DNA from: a virus
IMG/VR virus record: IMGVR_UViG_3300027749_000039
Span: 96,001 to 160,000 of that record
Reading direction: 5' to 3' (one strand)
DNA: 64,000 nucleotides
Below are positions 29,777 to 63,086 of this stretch, in pieces. The notes under the pieces are model-generated. The model was not told the origin of the DNA. It worked only from the letters and a program-made list of their open reading frames with translations, and ran no database searches. The position numbers and the translations under genes are program-made. Within the stretch, counting starts at the first letter, position 1; each line of letters starts with the position of its first letter.

Positions 29777-31045
29777 ATGAACAAATATATTACAGTCATG
29801 TTTCCTTATCCGTCTGGTGACGGGTTGCACATAGGACATGTATATAATTACGCAATAATGGACTCATATTGTCGCTATATGCGATATATGGGCAACGAAG
29901 TATATCAGCCTTTTGGGTTTGATGCCTTTGGTTTGCCTGCAGAAAATTATGCTAAAAAAGTAGGTAGAGATCCAAAAGATGTCACTTATGAAAACATAGA
30001 AAAGTTCCGTATTCAAATGAAACAAATGAATACTAAATTTGAAGAAGTATTGATTACTTCGGATCCTTCCTACCAGAAATGGACACAATGGTTGTTCATG
30101 AAATTGAAAGAACATGGGCTGGCTTATAAGAAAGACGGTGAAGTAAATTACTGTCCTTCTTGTGAAACTGTATTGGCTCGTGAACAAGTAAAAGAAGGTA
30201 AATGCGAAAGGTGTAGTTCTGTTATTGAGATGAAAACTATGAATCAGTGGTATTTTAAGATTACTGATTATAAAGAACGCTTGATTAAAAACTTGGATAA
30301 AATAGATTATCCTACTTCTACTATTAATGCACAACGCATGTGGTTGGAAAACTTGCATGATTGGTGTGTTAGTCGTCAAAGAAGTTGGGGTTGTCCTATA
30401 CCTATTGAAGGCGAAACAGACACAATGGATACATTTGTCGATTCATCTTTTTATTTTATCCGTTATTGTGACCCATTTAATGAAAATGAAATGTGTGCCA
30501 AAGACAAATATAAACAAGTTGATGTTTATGTTGGTGGTAACGAACATGCTTGTATGCACTTGATTTATGCAAGGTTTATTAACATGTTCTTGTATGATAT
30601 TGGTGTAGTTTCAGAAGAAGAACCTTTTCGGAAGTGCATCCATCAGGGAATGATTCTAAACGAAGGCGAGAAGATGTCCAAATCAAAGGGCAATACTATT
30701 AATCCAGATTCTTATGACCAGGACACCTTAAGATTCTATCTTATGTTTATCGGACATTACTTTGATGGTGGTTCATGGTCTGATCAGAATATAGCTGGTA
30801 TTAATCGCTTTATTAATCGTTTTAAAGAGTGGATGTCAAGAGAGGGTGATGATGTTATAGATGTGCCATCTTTTAAAACTAAAATATCTAATTATACAGA
30901 ATCTTTTAAGTTTAATAAGGTTGTATCTGAATTTATGACATTGGTTAATAAAGAACGGATAAAAAACTTGACCGCAGATTCTAAAGAAGAGTTGATTTCC
31001 ATCTTGGAGATTTACATGCCTGGCATAAGAAATAAATTAATTTAA
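29777..31045 (+). CDS. leuS: Minimal leucyl-tRNA synthetase (no CP1 editing domain, no C-terminal domain)
   Basis: MFPYPSG..LHIGH, GFDAFGLPAEN, DWCVSRQRSWG, MDTFVDSS, GGNEHA..HLIYARF and KMSKS; only 422 aa. Confidence 0.88.
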   Translation: MNKYITVMFPYPSGDGLHIGHVYNYAIMDSYCRYMRYMGNEVYQPFGFDAFGLPAENYAKKVGRDPKDVTYENIEKFRIQMKQMNTKFEEVLITSDPSYQKWTQWLFMKLKEHGLAYKKDGEVNYCPSCETVLAREQVKEGKCERCSSVIEMKTMNQWYFKITDYKERLIKNLDKIDYPTSTINAQRMWLENLHDWCVSRQRSWGCPIPIEGETDTMDTFVDSSFYFIRYCDPFNENEMCAKDKYKQVDVYVGGNEHACMHLIYARFINMFLYDIGVVSEEEPFRKCIHQGMILNEGEKMSKSKGNTINPDSYDQDTLRFYLMFIGHYFDGGSWSDQNIAGINRFINRFKEWMSREGDDVIDVPSFKTKISNYTESFKFNKVVSEFMTLVNKERIKNLTADSKEELISILEIYMPGIRNKLI

Positions 31046-33433: not shown

Positions 33434-33505
33434 AGCGGGATAGAGCAGTGGTAGCTCGCAAGGCTCATAACCTTGAGGTCATTGGTTCGAATCCAGTTCC
33501 TGCTT
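33434..33505 (+). tRNA. tRNA-Met(CAT), initiator-like
   Basis: Cloverleaf; CAAGG-CTCATAA-CCTTG; fMet-like GAGCAG.GGTAGCTCG D arm. Confidence 0.88.
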
Positions 33506-33520
33506 CAAAAAAAGACATAT

Positions 33521-33592
33521 TGCGGAGTAGAGCAGTGGTAGCTCGCAAGGCTCATAACCTTGAGGTCGTTGGTTCGAATCCAGCCTCCGTTA
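33521..33592 (+). tRNA. tRNA-Met(CAT), initiator-like (U1.U72 mismatch)
   Basis: Near-duplicate of 33434..33505 with an unpaired 1:72 position. Confidence 0.88.
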
Positions 33593-33631
33593 CTAAAAAA
33601 TTAAAAACAATAACAACTTAAAAATTATTTT

Positions 33632-34370: not shown

Positions 34371-35249
34371 ATGGGTGCGAATTCAAAAGAATGGACAGAA
34401 AAGGAAAAAGAAATACTTTTTAAATATTTTCCGAGTATGGGTAGTAATTATTGTTCAGAATTAACAGGAAGAACAAAAAGAGCTTGTCAAGAAATGGCAA
34501 AAAAATTAAAATTGAAGAGAGATTTAGATAAGTATGAAGATAAAGAAAAATTAGAGGAGTTAGTTAAAGGTTGTAAATCATATACAGAATGTGTAATAAA
34601 ATTGGGGTTATCTCCCAGATGTTCTGGTAATTTTCAGACTATCAAAAAATATATCACAATATATAATATAGATATTTCACATTTTGAAAATGGATTTCAA
34701 ATAGGCAACAAACCTCAAAATAAGAAAGAATTATCAGAAGTTTTAATAGAAAACTCTTTTTTTAGCAGAACTCATCTTAAAGAGAGACTATATAAAGAGG
34801 AATTAAAAAAGAAAGAATGTGAGATATGTGGAATTGGTGAAGATTGGTTTAATGGAACTAAAATAGTCCATATTTTAGACCATATAAATGGTGAGCCTTA
34901 TGATAATCGTCTTGAAAATTTAAGAATCGTTTGTCCTAATTGTAATTCAACATTAGAAACAAATTGTGTTGGGAATAAAGTTAATAAAATATATGATTCT
35001 AAAAAAGATGAATATAAAAGTGAAAAAACACATAAAAAATGTAATTGTGGTAAAATAATTTTGAAAGAAAGTAAATTTTGTTCAGAATGCAATGCCAAAA
35101 GTAAAAGAAAAATTATTAATAGACCAACATTTGAAGAATTAGTTAAGTTAATAGAAGAAAATGGTAATACTGGAACAGGTAAAATATACGGCGTTAGCGA
35201 AGCTGTCATAAGAAAATGGTTAAAACAATATAAAAATAAATTAGTATAG
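34371..35249 (+). mobile_element. Free-standing HNH homing endonuclease inside tRNA array 1
   Basis: CEIC...LDHINGEPYDNRLENLRIVCPNCNS and a C-terminal HTH. Confidence 0.88.
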
Positions 35250-35846: not shown

Positions 35847-37115
35847 ATGTTAGAAATAAAATTATTTAGGCAAAATAAGGACCTAATTATAGAAGGACTT
35901 AAAAAGAAAAATTTTAAGCAACTTAATTTAGTTGATGAAATTATTAAATTGGATGAAGATTTAAGAAAATTAAAACAGGAAACTGAAAATTTAACTTCTG
36001 TTATTAATAAAAATAATAGCGAAATTGCAAGATATATTAAAACAGATGCAGTTAAGGTAGAAAATATTAAAACTCATAATATTATTTTAAATGAAAAAAT
36101 TGAGGAATTAACTAATATACTAAATCAAACTGAAAACGAGTTATTGGATAATTTAATTCAATTACCAAATCTTCCAAATCAAATTGTAGAAATAGACAAT
36201 GGTAATGAAGCAACTAATGGTAATGTTATTATAAGAGAAAACTTAACTCAGTGTACACAAGGTAAACCTCATTGGGAAGTAATTAAAGATTTAAATATAG
36301 TTAGTTTTGAACTAGGAACTAAAATTACTGGTGCTGGGTTTCCTGTTTATATCGGAAAAGGCGCAAGATTACAAAGAGCTTTAATTCAATATTTTTTAGA
36401 TTATAATACTAATGCTGGTTATACAGAATATAATATACCATTAATGGTTAATTATGATTCTGCATATGGTACAGGACAACTCCCTGATAAAGAAGGTCAA
36501 ATGTATTATGCTGAAAAGGATAATTTATACTTAATTCCAACAGCAGAAGTTCCTTTAACTAATATCTTTAGAGATGAAATAGTTAATTTGCCCATAAAAA
36601 TGACAGGACATAGTGCTTGTTTTAGAAGAGAAGCTGGCGCACATGGTAAAGAAGTAAGAGGGTTAAATCGAGTTCATCAATTTGAAAAAGTTGAAATAGT
36701 TCAATTAGTTCAACCTGATAAAAGTTATGAAGTATTGGAAGAAATGGTTTTACATGTTGAGAACTTGATAAAAAGCTTAGAATTACCATATAGAATACTT
36801 AAATTAAGTGGCACAGATATGAGTTTTGCATCTGCTTTAACTTATGACTTTGAAGTATATAGTGCGGCTCAAGACAGATGGTTAGAAGTAAGTTCTGTGA
36901 GTAATTTTGAAACTTTCCAATCTAATCGTATGAAAATTAGATTTAAAGAAGATAAAAAGAACAAATTAGTTCATACTTTAAATGGAAGTTCTTTAGCATT
37001 ACCAAGAATAATGGCTTGCTTATTAGAAAATAATCAAACACATGAAGGTATAAAAATACCAGAAGTATTAATACCGTATTACGGTGACAAATTTTTAACA
37101 AATGGAAAATTATAA
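35847..37115 (+). CDS. serS: Seryl-tRNA synthetase
   Basis: N-terminal coiled coil, LIPTAEVPL, FRREAG, RVHQFEKVE, EVSSVSN and LNGSSLALPR. Confidence 0.95.
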   Translation: MLEIKLFRQNKDLIIEGLKKKNFKQLNLVDEIIKLDEDLRKLKQETENLTSVINKNNSEIARYIKTDAVKVENIKTHNIILNEKIEELTNILNQTENELLDNLIQLPNLPNQIVEIDNGNEATNGNVIIRENLTQCTQGKPHWEVIKDLNIVSFELGTKITGAGFPVYIGKGARLQRALIQYFLDYNTNAGYTEYNIPLMVNYDSAYGTGQLPDKEGQMYYAEKDNLYLIPTAEVPLTNIFRDEIVNLPIKMTGHSACFRREAGAHGKEVRGLNRVHQFEKVEIVQLVQPDKSYEVLEEMVLHVENLIKSLELPYRILKLSGTDMSFASALTYDFEVYSAAQDRWLEVSSVSNFETFQSNRMKIRFKEDKKNKLVHTLNGSSLALPRIMACLLENNQTHEGIKIPEVLIPYYGDKFLTNGKL

Positions 37116-37347
37116 AAAATTAATAGAGAAATATAAAGTTGAAATAGTAGATTATATTATTTCTTCAAAAGACCAATTAGAAGAATACCGTAAAAAGTAT
37201 TTAGGCGCAAATGGAATTATAAAACAAGTTTATAATCAATTAAAACAAGTTCCTGCTGAAAAAAGAAAACAAGCAGGAGAATTGTTAAGAGGATTAAAAG
37301 ATTGTGCTGAAAATAAATATGAAAATTCTTTTGTTAATTCAAAATAA
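37102..37347 (+). CDS. Stand-alone PheRS alpha-subunit N-terminal tRNA-binding arm
   Basis: LEEYRKKYLGANGII...LKQVPAEKRKQAGELL matches the PheS N-terminal coiled coil; no catalytic domain follows. Confidence 0.72.
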   Translation: MENYKKLIEKYKVEIVDYIISSKDQLEEYRKKYLGANGIIKQVYNQLKQVPAEKRKQAGELLRGLKDCAENKYENSFVNSK

Positions 37348-37352
37348 TTTCG

Positions 37353-37360
37353 TATCTTTG
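37353..37360 (+). promoter_or_regulatory. Bacteroidota-type -7 promoter element for tRNA operon 2
   Basis: TTTG...TATCTTTG; AATATATA also present at 37397-37404. Confidence 0.7.
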
Positions 37361-37409
37361 TAAAAGAAAATAAACAAAAAAGCATTTTAACAATATAATA
37401 TATACAATT

Positions 37410-37466
37410 ATGAAAACAATATCATCGTCTAGTCGCAGTAGTTTAACTTTGGAAATCCAGAGATGA
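37410..37466 (+). CDS. Leader peptide 2, MKTISSSSRSSLTLEIQR (putative attenuator)
   Basis: Block TCA TCG TCT AGT CGC AGT AGT; downstream tRNAs are Ser and Arg(ACG). Confidence 0.8.
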   Translation: MKTISSSSRSSLTLEIQR

Positions 37467-37485
37467 TAGTGTATGTATATACTTG

Positions 37486-37517
37486 AAGCCTTGGATTGTA
37501 AAATTCAAGGCTTTTTT
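37486..37517 (+). terminator. Attenuator terminator 2
   Basis: AAGCCTTGGAT-TGTAAA-ATTCAAGGCTTTTTT. Confidence 0.88.
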
Positions 37518-37523
37518 AATTTT

Positions 37524-37614
37524 GGTGAGTTACTCAAGTGGTCAAAGAGGCTTGTTTGCTAAACAAGTAGGACGGTAAAACGTTGCGTGGGTTCGAACCC
37601 CACACTCACCGCCA
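37524..37614 (+). tRNA. tRNA-Ser(GCT)
   Basis: CTTGT-TTGCTAA-ACAAG; long variable arm; GCCA end. Confidence 0.92.
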
Positions 37615-37617
37615 AAA

Positions 37618-37658
37618 TATACAGATAATTGCGGGTTCGAGACCCGTTCTGGATACAA
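37618..37658 (+). pseudogene. tRNA 3'-half remnant
   Basis: Isolated GCGGG-TTCGAGA-CCCGT T arm. Confidence 0.4.
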
Positions 37659-37664
37659 AAATAT

Positions 37665-37738
37665 GGTCTCATCGTTCAATGGATTTAGGATACTTGGCTA
37701 CGAACTAAGAGATTGGGGTTCGAATCCCTATGAGACTA
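37665..37738 (+). tRNA. tRNA-Arg(ACG)
   Basis: CTTGG-CTACGAA-CTAAG. Confidence 0.9.
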
Positions 37739-37744
37739 CTAATA

Positions 37745-37832
37745 GGAAAGTTGGCAGAGCGGTTTAATGCGCTGGCACTGAAGCCGGTGACTGGCAAAAG
37801 CCGGTCCGTGAGTTCGAATCTCATACTTTCTT
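37745..37832 (+). tRNA. tRNA-Ser-type with 6-nt anticodon loop ACTGAA (possibly degenerate)
   Basis: GGAAAGT acceptor, long variable arm and normal T arm; anticodon loop one nt short. Confidence 0.55.
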
Positions 37833-37836
37833 ATAT

Positions 37837-37926
37837 GGAGAAGTAAAACGAAATTGGTATCGTCCCTGATTGGAAATCAGGTTATCGGGTCAAACTGGTA
37901 TGTAGGTTCGAGTCCTATTTTCTCCG
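37837..37926 (+). tRNA. tRNA-Ser(GGA)
   Basis: CCTGA-TTGGAAA-TCAGG; long variable arm; G73. Confidence 0.88.
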
Positions 37927-37970
37927 CAATGTTTCAAAAAAAGAAATATACTTAATAATACACAATTAAA

Positions 37971-39091: not shown

Positions 39092-39967
39092 ATGAAATGG
39101 ACAAAAGAAAAATGTAAGGAGATTTCAAATTTATTTGATAATATAAGTGACTTTGAGAAAGAGTATAGAGGGTCTTATATGTCTGCTAGAAGAAATGGTT
39201 GGTTAGAAGAAATAACCAAACATATGAAAAAAAGAGAGACCTTGACCGAGAAAAGGTGTCATGAGATTTCATCAAAATTTGAAACTAAAACAAAATTATG
39301 TGAACATAATAGTTCTGTTTATAAAAAAATTATGAAGAACAAATGGCTATATATGTTTTCTCATATGGAAAATAATAATAGTAGTGAAGATGATAGATGT
39401 ATATACGCATACGAATTTAATGATAACAGTGTTTATGTAGGATTAACAAAAAATGTTAAAACTAGAAATAATTTGCATATGAAACATGGTAGTGTTTTTG
39501 AACATATAAGAATATGCAATGATTTTAAGTTAATAATCTTAACAGATTATTTACCAGTTTATGAATCAAAATTAAAGGAAGATGAATATCTTAATTATTA
39601 TAAAAATAATGGATGGAAAGTCTTAAACAAGATAAAAACTGGTGGTATAGGTAGTTGCGGATATTTGAATAGGACATCATATTGGATAAAAGAAAAATGT
39701 ATTGAAGAAGCATTAAAATATACAAATAGAAGCGAATTTCAATATAATTCGGGAAGTGCATATCGCTCTGCTCAAAAAAATAAATGGTTAGATGAAATAT
39801 GTTCGCATATGCAACCACTCCGAAATTACAAGGGATATTGGACAAAGAAAAAATGTGAAGAAGAATCTTTGAAATATAAAAATAAAAATCAATTTCAAAA
39901 AAATAATAGTGCCGCATATATGTGTTCATACAAAAATGGTTGGCTAAATGAATTTTATAAAAGTTAA
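39092..39967 (+). mobile_element. GIY-YIG-like homing endonuclease with WTKEKC repeats
   Basis: CIYAYEF..NSVYVGLT..R...H; repeated W(T/I)KEKC..EALKY modules. Confidence 0.75.
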
Positions 39968-47874: not shown

Positions 47875-48510
47875 TTGCATCACACAATTTATAAAATAAC
47901 CAATTTAATAAATGGCAAAATTTATATTGGAAAACACTCAACAAATGATATTAAAGATAACTACTACGGTAGTGGGAAATTAATTAAAAGTGCTATAGAA
48001 AAATATGGTATTATTAATTTCACAAAAGAAATTTTGTTTAATTTTCAATCAGAGGAAGAAGCTTATGCCAAGGAAAAGGAAATAGTAAATGAAAGTTTCA
48101 TAAAAAGAAAAGATGTTTATAACCTTATAATAGGGGGTGATACATTTGAAGCTATTAATTCCAATTTAGAATTAAGAAAAGCTAAAAATAAGAAAGCTGC
48201 ATTAATTATGAATTCTGTAAATTGGAATAATCCAGAATTTAGAAAAAGGCAAACTGATAAAATGATATTACAAAATAAAAAATTGCATAAAGAAGGAATT
48301 CTTAAAAGTGTTGATTGGACCGGAAAGAAACATAAGGATGAAAGCAAAGAGAAAATGAGGGAAAAGGCAAAATTGAGAATAGGTGATAAAAACTCTTCAT
48401 TTGGAACTTGTTGGATATATAATGAAAATGAAAGTAAGAAAATAAAAAAAGAAGATTTAGAAAACTACTTATCTATTGGATGGATAAAAGGTAGAAAAAT
48501 TAAATTTTAA
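47875..48510 (+). mobile_element. GIY-YIG homing endonuclease inside tRNA array 3
   Basis: TIYKITNLINGKIYIGKH, YYGSG and NUMOD3-like GKKHKDESKEKM; TTG start. Confidence 0.88.
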
Positions 48511-49460: not shown

Positions 49461-50240
49461 ATGGACGATAACGTCCGCTCCTATGACGAAACAACTCTGT
49501 TTTGTCCTGCAGGAATGTCCCAATACAAATCCTTATTTAAGGATATTAACCACAAGGGAACAATAAGTAATATACAATCTTGCCTTCGTTTAAACGATAT
49601 GGAAGAAATAGGTGATGGGAGCCACCTATTGTATTTTAACATGATTGGATTATTCTCGTTTAGAGAAATGACTATACAAGAAGCTATTGACTTTTGGATG
49701 GAATTTCTCTATAAAATCAATTGTATTCCTGATTACATTACTATTCATCCTGATAAACCTGAATGGCGAGATTTCTATTCTAATTATAATGTTGAAATAC
49801 GTTATGATGAAGGGTGTATATGGAGTGACGGAGGTATCGGTGGCTACTGCACTGAATTTTACAAGGATGATATTGAAATAGGTAATATAGTTAATCCGTT
49901 AGGTACTTGTATTGACGCAGGGTGGGGTTTGGAACGTATAGAAATGGTTTTATATAATGAGAGAAAAACAAAAGAAGAAACCTTAATTAATACAATTATG
50001 AAAATGATTGAAAGCGGATTTACACCTACTTACAATAAACAAGGTTCTCTTTTGCGAAAACTTTTAAGAATTTGTTATTTAGAAAAAATAGAAGTTCCGC
50101 ATCAATTTTACCAAGATGAAATTTTGAGACAACAAAAAATTATAGAAAAATATAATAGAATGAAAGAGAAACCTAAGTTTAAAAATATGTCTAAGGAGTT
50201 TTGGTTTAATACTCTTGGTATTGATATAGATTTAATGTGA
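49461..50240 (+). CDS. alaS: Minimal alanyl-tRNA synthetase (aminoacylation core only)
   Basis: TTLFCPAGMSQYK, IQSCLRLND, FNMIGLFSF, WSDGGIGGYCTEF, EIGNIV and IDAGWGLERI. The frame is open upstream to 49377, so the true start may be earlier. Confidence 0.82.
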   Translation: MDDNVRSYDETTLFCPAGMSQYKSLFKDINHKGTISNIQSCLRLNDMEEIGDGSHLLYFNMIGLFSFREMTIQEAIDFWMEFLYKINCIPDYITIHPDKPEWRDFYSNYNVEIRYDEGCIWSDGGIGGYCTEFYKDDIEIGNIVNPLGTCIDAGWGLERIEMVLYNERKTKEETLINTIMKMIESGFTPTYNKQGSLLRKLLRICYLEKIEVPHQFYQDEILRQQKIIEKYNRMKEKPKFKNMSKEFWFNTLGIDIDLM

Positions 50241-53534: not shown

Positions 53535-53608
53535 CAACACATATAATACGAAAATCTATTTGTTAATTCAAATAGATTTTCGTATTTTTGCTTATTAAAA
53601 GAAATTCT

Positions 53609-54682
53609 ATGAAATTTAACACATTTCCCGAAAATATAAATCCTTTCCAGAAAAAAGGTATAGTAAAGTTTGGTATCGATCCAACTGGCTCTGAGATGCA
53701 TTTAGGACACCTCTTACCTTTGAGAATTGTGAAAAAATTCAAAGCCGAAGGTTTCCCTATACATATTATACTAGGCACATTTACAGCTCAAATTGGAGAC
53801 GCTACTGGTAGAGATGCTACCCGTCCAATCTTAACAGAGCTAGAAACTATTGAAAATGGTGAAAAATTACTTCAACAAGTAAAAAGAATACTTGGTGATG
53901 ATATAATAATTCACAAAAATACAACTTGGCATAATGCAATGCAACTACCAGAGTTTATGAAGGTTATATCTAATTTTTCAGTTCAAAAGCTATTAAATAG
54001 AGATAATTTTGCTAAACGTATGGAAGCTCATGTGCCTATCGCTATGCACGAGTTGATGGGTCCAATACTACAAGGTATAGATTCATTTCAGTTAAATACT
54101 ACCGTAGAAGTTGGTGGTTCTGATCAATTATTTAATTTTGTAATTACAAGAGAAGTACAAGAATTATTGGGACAAACACCAGAAGTTTGTGTGCTATCTC
54201 CTGTTATTAACGGATTAGATGGACGTAAAATGTCTAAATCATTTGGTAATTGTATTTTTATTAATGATACCCCAGAAGATGTATTTGGTAAAGTTATGTC
54301 TATTTCAGATGAAACTATGAGAGAGTGGCTTCCTATATTTTTTGACGAAATAGATGCTACAAAACATCCAATGGTTCAAAAGAAAGAATTAGCATTTCGA
54401 ATAACACAGGAAATATGGAGTTTAGAAGCGGCGGAAACGGGTAAAGCACACTTCCAATCTGTTATACAAAGTAGGGAACTACCTGAAAATATGCCTGAAT
54501 TTGAAATAGGTAATTTAACTGAAATAGTTAGTAAAATTATTAATGGTTCTAAAACAGAAGCAAGAAGATTATTAACTTCAAATGCTGTTAAAATTAATGG
54601 TGAAAAAGTAGCAGAAGGGTTTGAAGTAAAGTCTGGTGATATAGTTAAAGTAGGTAAAAGAAATTTCGCAAAAATTATATGA
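53609..54682 (+). CDS. tyrS: Tyrosyl-tRNA synthetase (bacterial type, C-terminal S4 domain)
   Basis: GIDPT..MHLGH, IGD, QGIDS, GGSDQLFN and KMSKS; start ATG 53609 follows the promoter at 53583-53590. Confidence 0.92.
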   Translation: MKFNTFPENINPFQKKGIVKFGIDPTGSEMHLGHLLPLRIVKKFKAEGFPIHIILGTFTAQIGDATGRDATRPILTELETIENGEKLLQQVKRILGDDIIIHKNTTWHNAMQLPEFMKVISNFSVQKLLNRDNFAKRMEAHVPIAMHELMGPILQGIDSFQLNTTVEVGGSDQLFNFVITREVQELLGQTPEVCVLSPVINGLDGRKMSKSFGNCIFINDTPEDVFGKVMSISDETMREWLPIFFDEIDATKHPMVQKKELAFRITQEIWSLEAAETGKAHFQSVIQSRELPENMPEFEIGNLTEIVSKIINGSKTEARRLLTSNAVKINGEKVAEGFEVKSGDIVKVGKRNFAKII

Positions 54683-62279: not shown

Positions 62280-63086
62280 ATGAGACATAAACAAACAGAA
62301 CAAACTAAAAAGAAGTTATCAGAAATAAGAAAAAAATGGTTAGCAGATAATCCAGAAAAACATCCATGGAAAAGAAAAGATAAATTCTTATCTAAGCCTT
62401 GTGAATTTTTCAAAAAGAAATTATTGGAAAATAATTTAACTTTTTCGGAAGAACAAAACTTACTTGAAGGAAGAGCATATTCGGTAGATGTAGTTTTTTA
62501 TGATAAAATGATTGGATTTAAAATAAATGGAAATCAACATTATAATTCAGATAAAACTCTTAAAGATTATTATAAAAAAAGGAAAGAAGAGATTGAAATT
62601 TTAGGATGGAAATTATATGATATACATTATACAAAAGTTTATAATGAAAAATTTATAGAGGAAATAATAAAATTCATAAAAGAGCAAAAGGAAATTCCAA
62701 ATTTTAATTTTGAATTTTTTATAAAAAAGGTTAAAAAAATATGTAAAGATTGTGGTAAAGAAATATCATATAATAGCATAGAAAGATGTTTAAAATGTCA
62801 TAATATATCCAGAAGAACAGAAAAATATGAAGTTAATTTAAAATATAAAATAGGTGCTAATAAAAAAGAAAAATTTATAAAAAATTGTAATTGTGGTGAA
62901 ATAATATCCATAAATTCAAATAATTGTAAGGAATGTTTTGATAAAATACAAAGAAAAATAGTTGATAGACCAAGTTTAGAAATTTTATTAGAAGAGGTTA
63001 AAGATATAGGATATAGTGCGGTTGGTAGAAAATATGGAGTTAGTGATAATTCTATAAGAAAGTGGATAAAAAATTATCAAAAATAA
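62280..63086 (+). mobile_element. Vsr/DUF559-like endonuclease with Zn fingers and HTH, inside tRNA array 4
   Basis: YSVD...GFKINGNQHY, L..LGW, CxxC pairs, and a C-terminus shared with 34371..35249. Confidence 0.75.

Follow-up and report, generated by a model that had tools for sequence, protein, structure and literature searches.

A putative leader-peptide transcription attenuator before a serine/arginine tRNA array of a large phage with Bacteroidota-type promoters

Introduction

In the pheST attenuator of Escherichia coli, a short ORF with cognate codons, encoding the pheM leader peptide, is coupled to a terminator/antiterminator switch that responds to charged tRNA. The unit described here lies in a 64,000-nt stretch of viral DNA (the window; positions 96,001 to 160,000 of IMG/VR record IMGVR_UViG_3300027749_000039) and resembles pheST in that cognate codons in a short leader ORF, together with a predicted switch, stand over genes of the translation apparatus. 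The likeness extends to phage relatives, in which leaders containing FF or FFF and a terminator are found before the gene for PheRS alpha. Three differences set the present unit apart from pheST: the genes under its putative control encode tRNAs and not a protein, two amino acids and four isoacceptors would be sampled, and promoter and translation start follow the Bacteroidota pattern, in which a Shine-Dalgarno sequence is missing.

A similar comparison can be drawn with the ilvGMEDA, ilvBN, thr, trpL, hisL and leuL attenuators, with which the locus shares a predicted layout of four RNA segments, in which the antiterminator is set free by a stalled ribosome and blocked by one that has reached the stop codon. 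Like the multivalent members of this group (ilvGMEDA, ilvBN and thr), it has several amino acids read in one leader. Unlike the attenuators of amino-acid operons, it has the decoding machinery as its target, its product would feed back on the sensor, and it belongs to a bank of seven units. The genes that it would regulate, four tRNA genes, fall outside the classical scope of such control, which comprises amino-acid biosynthesis, transport and synthetase genes.

T-box riboswitches also couple the charging status of tRNA to read-through, in their case into tRNA-charging genes. They bind uncharged tRNA directly and without translation, whereas the leader considered here carries an ORF that appears to be of a translated type, with cognate codons. 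No T-box or other riboswitch covariance model of Rfam matched the locus. Nor did the Rfam leader families, the best of which (Thr_leader) scored 16.4 bits against a threshold of 55 bits; only tRNA matches reached the gathering score. A full-text literature search returned, within the library searched, no description of tRNA genes, from phages or any other source, under the control of a leader peptide.

Both the reason why phages carry tRNA genes and the way in which they put them to use are under debate; among the reasons proposed are codon-usage compensation, the decay of host tRNAs and an escape from anticodon nucleases. Serratia phage BF and the crAss-like phages are further examples of phages whose own tRNA genes supplement host decoding.

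Results

The virus genome is a single record of 190,602 bp with a G+C content of 27.9% and 46 tRNA genes. In the unit under study, a promoter, a leader ORF, a terminator and four tRNA genes follow one another in this order (Table 1). No other conserved promoter lies between the first promoter and the tRNA genes, and the array tRNAs would therefore be transcribable only through the terminator. ORFs of at least 80 codons are absent from both strands over the attenuator and array region.

Table 1. Features of the Ser/Arg unit and of related leaders. Positions are those of the window unless a relative is named.
Feature	Position	Strand	Basis or detail
-33 promoter element TTTG	37330..37333	+	19 nt 5' of the -7 box
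-7 promoter element TATCTTTG, Bacteroidota TAnnTTTG type	37353..37360	+	motif match
A/T-rich 5' untranslated region, without Shine-Dalgarno sequence	37361..37409	+	identical in L032
Leader ORF MKTISSSSRSSLTLEIQR, 18 codons, ATG at 37410, TGA at 37464-37466, in-frame TAG next	37410..37466	+	sequence
Segment 1, predicted 5' strand of the anti-antiterminator, overlapping the TCN codons	37416..37430	+	pairs with 37459-37472 in the untranslated minimum-energy fold
Regulatory codon block TCA TCG TCT AGT CGC AGT AGT (codons 5-11)	37422..37442	+	readable by array tRNAs
Segment 2, 5' strand of the antiterminator, AATCCAG	37454..37460	+	pairs with 37491-37497 in the predicted stalled-ribosome fold
Small hairpin inside the antiterminator helix	37468..37483	+	predicted stalled-state fold
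Intrinsic terminator: 5' arm 37485-37497, loop 37498-37501, 3' arm 37502-37514, U-run to 37517	37485..37517	+	13 pairs, -16.3 kcal/mol
tRNA-Ser(GCT), reads AGT/AGC	37524..37614	+	ARAGORN; Rfam 57.6 bits
tRNA remnant, T-arm and 3' acceptor strand only	37615..37664	+	aligns to the ends of an L032 element
tRNA-Arg(ACG), reads CGT/CGC/CGA	37665..37739	+	ARAGORN; Rfam 52 bits
Ser(TGA)-like type-II tRNA with non-canonical CUGA/UGA anticodon loop (CACUGAAG) of 6 or 8 nt	37744..37833	+	ARAGORN anticodon 'ctga'
tRNA-Ser(GGA), reads TCT/TCC	37840..37927	+	ARAGORN; Rfam 37.1 bits
Ser/Arg leader of L032			MKTLLSSSRRSSLTLEIQR
Ser/Arg leader of L038			MKNIVSSSRSRSDSEIRR
Ser/Arg leader of L041			MNITLISSSRSSLNFLIRR
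Ser/Arg leader of L042			MKNIVLSSSRSRNSVYRS
Synthetase-gene leaders of relatives	L033:7257-7348, L036:2982-3073, L037:3543-3643, L038:7185-7288
Synthetase-gene leaders of relatives, further loci	L041:1394-1488, L042:4630-4729, L043:12955-13062, L043:3010-3129

The two-part promoter motif occurs at 21 plus-strand sites of the genome, including other tRNA units as well as ordinary genes, and the other leaders of the genome have similar 5' regions ahead of them. When aligned with the close relative L032, the stretch from the promoter to the ATG was 94% identical, with zero differences at 37341-37409. The sequence TAATTTTG at 37515-37522 also formally fits TAnnTTTG; it lies 1-2 nt before the tRNA gene and is not kept in L032, and was put down to chance. 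Matches of Lak phages to 37308-37421 were set aside too, as they reflect a likeness of promoter and 5' untranslated region before an ordinary gene and not a homologous attenuator.

The preliminary description had read an SSSSRSS codon block at 37422-37442, and the block was found exactly there. All seven of its codons are readable by tRNAs of the array under standard wobble rules, even though two of them are seldom used by the phage: in its long ORFs, CGC makes up 3.3% of the Arg codons and TCG 4.1% of the Ser codons, with AGA accounting for 70% of the Arg codons. A six-frame survey of the 190,602-bp genome (381,200 codon positions) yielded runs of seven Ser/Arg codons at four loci, one of which is this leader, and chance appears an unlikely source of the block. 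It should be noted that only 7 of the 17 sense codons after the ATG are cognate to the array, and that the last codon of the leader, AGA (37461-37463), has no cognate tRNA in it.

Close relatives were reached through the neighbouring SerRS gene in a protein collection, and huge phages among GenBank phages; IMG/VR scans with the SerRS protein and with a tRNA-Arg pattern returned no relatives. Homologous Ser/Arg units were found in L032, L038, L041, L042 and the huge uncultured phages LR745206 (W01) and LR756502 (W02), all of them before Ser and Arg(ACG) tRNAs. These homologues share ancestry, so that counts across them are counts of non-independent events. The leaders of W01 and W02 are MKTINNTSKSSSRSSSMSEIRLYS and MKTTIKNTSSRSRSSKSGEVRLYS, respectively, and precede Arg(ACG), Ser(TGA), Ser(GCT) and Arg(TCG) genes, joined in W01 by Ser(GGA). 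The core AGT-CGY is conserved in all seven homologues, as is a tandem stop (TGA or TAA, then TAG), which occupies 37464-37469 in the window. Compared with L032, the leader ORF is 90% identical and the stretch from the stop codon to the U-run 96%, the figure for third codon positions of the adjacent SerRS gene being 83.5%; the differences cluster in the codon block and in the terminator loop.

The choice of arginine codon follows the arginine tRNA. The single CGC had been proposed to match the single Arg-ACG gene, and in keeping with this the arginine of the block is encoded by CGC or CGT in 7/7 Ser/Arg units with Arg(ACG). In units with Arg(TCT), the block uses AGA; this includes array 4, whose leader does contain AGA, twice, and whose genes do include Arg(TCT), as the earlier reading had it. 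One mixed case was seen, LR756504, in which the leader has both kinds of Arg codon and Arg(ACG) is the only Arg tRNA of the array.

The four tRNA genes announced behind the leader (Ser-GCT, Arg-ACG, a Ser(TGA)-like gene and Ser-GGA) were all detected by ARAGORN and Rfam. The Arg(ACG) gene is 82-85% identical to the Arg(ACG) genes of LR745206 and LR756502. The Ser(TGA)-like homologues of L032, W01 and W02 have a canonical 7-nt anticodon loop, and the window's gene may be a defective or unusual decoder, to judge from its loop. Array 1 carries a canonical Ser(TGA), and decoding of TCA and TCG may depend on that other unit. In an alignment with L032, the acceptor stem of Ser(GGA) reads GGAGAAG/TTTCTCC. 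A covariation of the leader TCT codon with the presence of Ser(GGA) was considered and dropped, because relaxed ARAGORN and the alignment placed a Ser(GGA) gene in L032. The L032 leader has no TCT or TCC codon in spite of this gene, which indicates that not every tRNA is sampled in every relative. The window's tRNA remnant corresponds to the ends of a 250-nt longer element of L032 (L032:6551-6803), which is perhaps an interrupted or intron-bearing tRNA gene.

The terminator hairpin has a 4-nt loop and a G+C-rich base, its 6-U run is conserved in all units, and it ends 7 nt before the first tRNA. A pairing of AATCCAG (37454-37460) with TTGGATT in its 5' arm had been suggested; TTGGATT is present inside that arm, at 37491-37497, and the helix covaries in the homologues. 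In a five-sequence alignment, the terminator was 98.5% paired, with compensatory (both-side) changes in 5 of 13 pairs, and the antiterminator 97% paired, with compensatory changes in 4 of 7 pairs. When the partner strand was shifted by 1-3 columns, the latter figure fell to 8-63%, and in a second set, of five close relatives, the antiterminator was 91% paired. These counts come from two five-sequence alignments (A4 and A8), as a seven-sequence MAFFT alignment put both huge-phage rows out of register. One position is altered in three places together, namely in the leader strand, the 5' arm and the 3' arm, which is what two competing helices would lead one to expect. Moreover, the antiterminator 5' strand lies within coding sequence; the amino acids there vary (EIQR, EIRR, EIRL, EVRL) and the pairing is maintained, and the constraint is therefore on the RNA.

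On energy, it is fair to call this antiterminator the weakest of the four, as the preliminary description did. The best duplex between leader and terminator arm reaches -6.6 kcal/mol, a value not above that of shuffled sequence (p about 0.43; 0.62). Given that the duplex of a single sequence does no better than shuffles, support for the antiterminator comes from covariation and position. The terminator, at -16.3 kcal/mol, is the more stable of the two structures, and the switch must consequently be kinetic.

Folding with a modelled ribosome gave a distinct structure for each state. With the ribosome placed on the Ser/Arg block before synthesis of the 3' arm, the minimum-energy fold was the helix 37454-37460:37491-37497, at -10.5 kcal/mol including the inner hairpin; with the ribosome at the stop codon, only the terminator was left; and with no ribosome, the full-length RNA formed a long hairpin, in which the TCN codons pair with 37459-37472, together with the terminator. 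The predicted anti-antiterminator helix between segments 1 and 2 is 83% paired in five relatives, and its covariation is weak. In 6/7 units, the best duplex of leader and arm begins 18-21 nt past AGU-CGY and ends just before the stop codon. In W02, the best-scoring duplex begins at 11 nt, the homologous strand lying ~18 nt past AGU-CGY. A distance of 18-21 nt is consistent with a strand that would lie just free of a stalled ribosome and be covered by one that terminates.

The genome holds seven units of promoter, leader, terminator and array, four of them in the window and three beyond it. Each leader matches its own array, the contents being His/Phe/Trp/Lys, Ser/Arg, Tyr/Glu/Gly/Ala, Asn/Ile/Arg/Thr/Leu/Val/Cys, Leu/Met, Asp and Gln. 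When the codons of the leaders were set against the anticodons of the arrays in a matrix, the true pairing ranked first among 5040 permutations, by amino acid as well as by codon. This replication across seven units appears to us the strongest argument against chance.

Homologous units stand before nearly every tRNA array of LR745206 and LR756502, and both phages also pass the permutation test of leaders against arrays. Other phages group their tRNAs differently, and the leaders differ with them: LSLCLSLSLSL precedes a Leu/Ser/Cys array, IIRMRIIR (with AGA codons) an Arg(TCT)/Ile/Met array, SYESYYEE a Glu/Tyr array and QQIQQQQ a Gln array. In these sequences, leader composition tracks array content across the differing groupings. 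Leaders of the same kind are found before synthetase genes as well. Several relatives have FF- or FFF-containing leaders, for example MKTNININFFSCFT or MKNINNINFFFIGY, and a terminator directly before PheRS alpha, and one has an IIIISIIII leader (MNNYIIIISIIIISKLMCLGIIM) before a class I (IleRS-like) synthetase, which suggests that the design would also control synthetase genes.

As controls, Serratia phage BF and a crAss-like Bohxovirus were inspected. A terminator lay directly upstream of 0/10 array starts in phage BF, and none lay before the tRNAs of the Bohxovirus; in both phages, unlike the present one, tRNA genes directly follow protein genes or stand singly, without a promoter-leader-terminator unit.

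Several arrangements of tRNA genes that depart from the common plan were also seen. At 33434-33593, two tRNA-Met(CAT) genes separate the promoter (about 33390) from leader 1 (33632). Being upstream of the terminator, they would be made constitutively, and the same order of two Met(CAT) genes before the leader recurs in L032, L033 and LR745206. Beyond the window, at genome positions 54412-54485, an amber-reading tRNA (anticodon CTA) is preceded by a promoter and by two small ORFs for hydrophobic products, and has no leader-terminator unit. Leader 5 ends in TAG. In the Prevotella megaphage Lak-B2 (MK250021.1; L016:465-665), one 37-codon leader, MKQFNNIYKNNVDIYADSFNWYEQDCYADMLRDIVIS, and a terminator are followed by the main array, of 19 tRNAs of mixed identity.

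Discussion

We consider it very likely, from the sequence comparisons above, that the Ser/Arg unit is a ribosome-mediated (leader-peptide) transcription attenuator of a four-gene tRNA array in a large phage with Bacteroidota-type promoters. The first reading of the locus as an attenuator is supported by parts that are present and conserved: a promoter of its own, a short ORF of cognate codons, a terminator right before the tRNAs and an alternative pairing of its 5' arm. The anatomy, the match of codons to anticodons, the conservation, the covariation of both alternative helices and the fixed stall geometry are all observed in the unit and its homologues. We infer that the leader is translated, that ribosomes stall on it and that termination is conditional, as well as what the physiological trigger would be.

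Transcription would start from the promoter at 37330-37360, and the 18-codon leader would be translated while RNA polymerase advances. As long as Ser-tRNA(UGA, GGA, GCU) and Arg-tRNA(ACG) are plentiful, the ribosome would reach the tandem stop at 37464-37469 and cover AAUCCAG (37454-60); the terminator hairpin could then form, and transcription would end at the U-run, 7 nt before the first tRNA. Should any of these charged tRNAs be scarce, the ribosome would stall within 37422-37442 and hold segment 1, leaving AAUCCAG free to pair with UUGGAUU of the terminator 5' arm, so that no terminator would form and the polymerase would enter the array. Leader and hairpin would be removed by the RNase P cut at the 5' end of tRNA-Ser(GCT). 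The tRNAs produced would relieve the stall, which would amount to negative feedback on the decoding capacity for these codons.

Beyond the single unit, we lean, with considerable reserve, towards viewing the seven units as a phage-run controller of decoding capacity, in which arrays are transcribed only when their own codons are decoded slowly. Such a controller would top up tRNAs that are lacking in the host or lost during infection, whether through host shut-off or an anticodon-nuclease defence, and would be found across a broad range of large and huge phages whose promoters are of the Bacteroidota type. It would be the first natural case of tRNA genes autoregulated via a translated sensor, because the array's own products close the loop.

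A related reading keeps the switch and changes its signal, which would be amino-acid supply or aminoacylation (host Ser or Arg starvation), the array then belonging to a general response to starvation. What a stalled ribosome reports is charged tRNA, low tRNA and low charging being indistinguishable in this respect; genes for SerRS, an AlaRS-like protein, TyrRS and a MetRS-like protein lie in the same region of the phage, and relatives have the same kind of leader before synthetase genes. We nevertheless regard this signal as unlikely, for extra tRNA does not relieve amino-acid starvation, and each unit would control the very tRNAs by which its leader is read, as expected of feedback on tRNA supply. 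In addition, the SerRS gene is located upstream, within the unit behind leader 1, and is thereby outside the control of the Ser/Arg leader.

Two further explanations do away with part of the attenuator. The hairpin could be a fixed, partly leaky terminator that allows constant low transcription of the tRNAs, with a small ORF that is untranslated or irrelevant to read-through; the unremarkable energy of the antiterminator in the single sequence would sit well with this. Highly improbable in our view, it leaves unexplained the codon-to-anticodon match in seven units, the AGT-CGY core with its tandem stop and fixed spacing, the compensatory changes in the helix between coding sequence and terminator arm, and the way in which leaders change with array content. 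An output other than termination has even less to recommend it, and we give it hardly any credence: the leader would be translated and sense decoding, and its effect would be on ribosome-dependent protection from, or exposure to, RNases or on processing of the pre-tRNA 5' leader. With its end 7 nt short of the mature 5' end of the first tRNA, the hairpin does belong to the RNase P substrate; yet it is in form a complete intrinsic terminator (G+C-rich base, conserved 6-U run), and the competing helix targets exactly the 5' arm of that terminator.

If the attenuator operates as proposed, leader-peptide attenuation would extend from metabolic and synthetase genes to tRNA genes, with a product that feeds back on the sensor. 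A codon-matched sensor before each array would mean that tRNA expression is demand-driven and isoacceptor-specific, and would show directly which tRNAs run short in the course of infection. The unit consists of compact, modular parts (a promoter, an 18-codon ORF and a 33-nt terminator), which could serve as codon-specific decoding reporters. The choice of Arg codon, CGC here and AGA in array 4, provides a clean opportunity for a synonymous-codon swap.

The surroundings of the unit contain further genes connected with translation and RNA. Window positions 29777-31045, 35847-37115, 49461-50240 and 53588-54682 form a translation island with genes for a truncated class I (MetRS-like) synthetase, a full SerRS, a short AlaRS-like protein and TyrRS; its SerRS shares ~60-63% identity with that of Bacteroidota. 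At 37102-37347, PheRS is represented by no more than 81 residues of its N-terminal domain, and the Ser/Arg unit follows this fragment; at the same place, a number of relatives have a complete PheRS alpha preceded by a Phe leader. ORFs of homing-endonuclease type (HNH, GIY-YIG and zinc-ribbon) are inserted inside or beside the tRNA arrays, at 34371-35249, 39092-39967, 47875-48510 and 62280-63086. Two genes of the RNA-ligase family (PF09414; 39974-40630 and 41322-42026), located 2-4 kb 3' of the array, are kept in relatives and may hint at tRNA repair.
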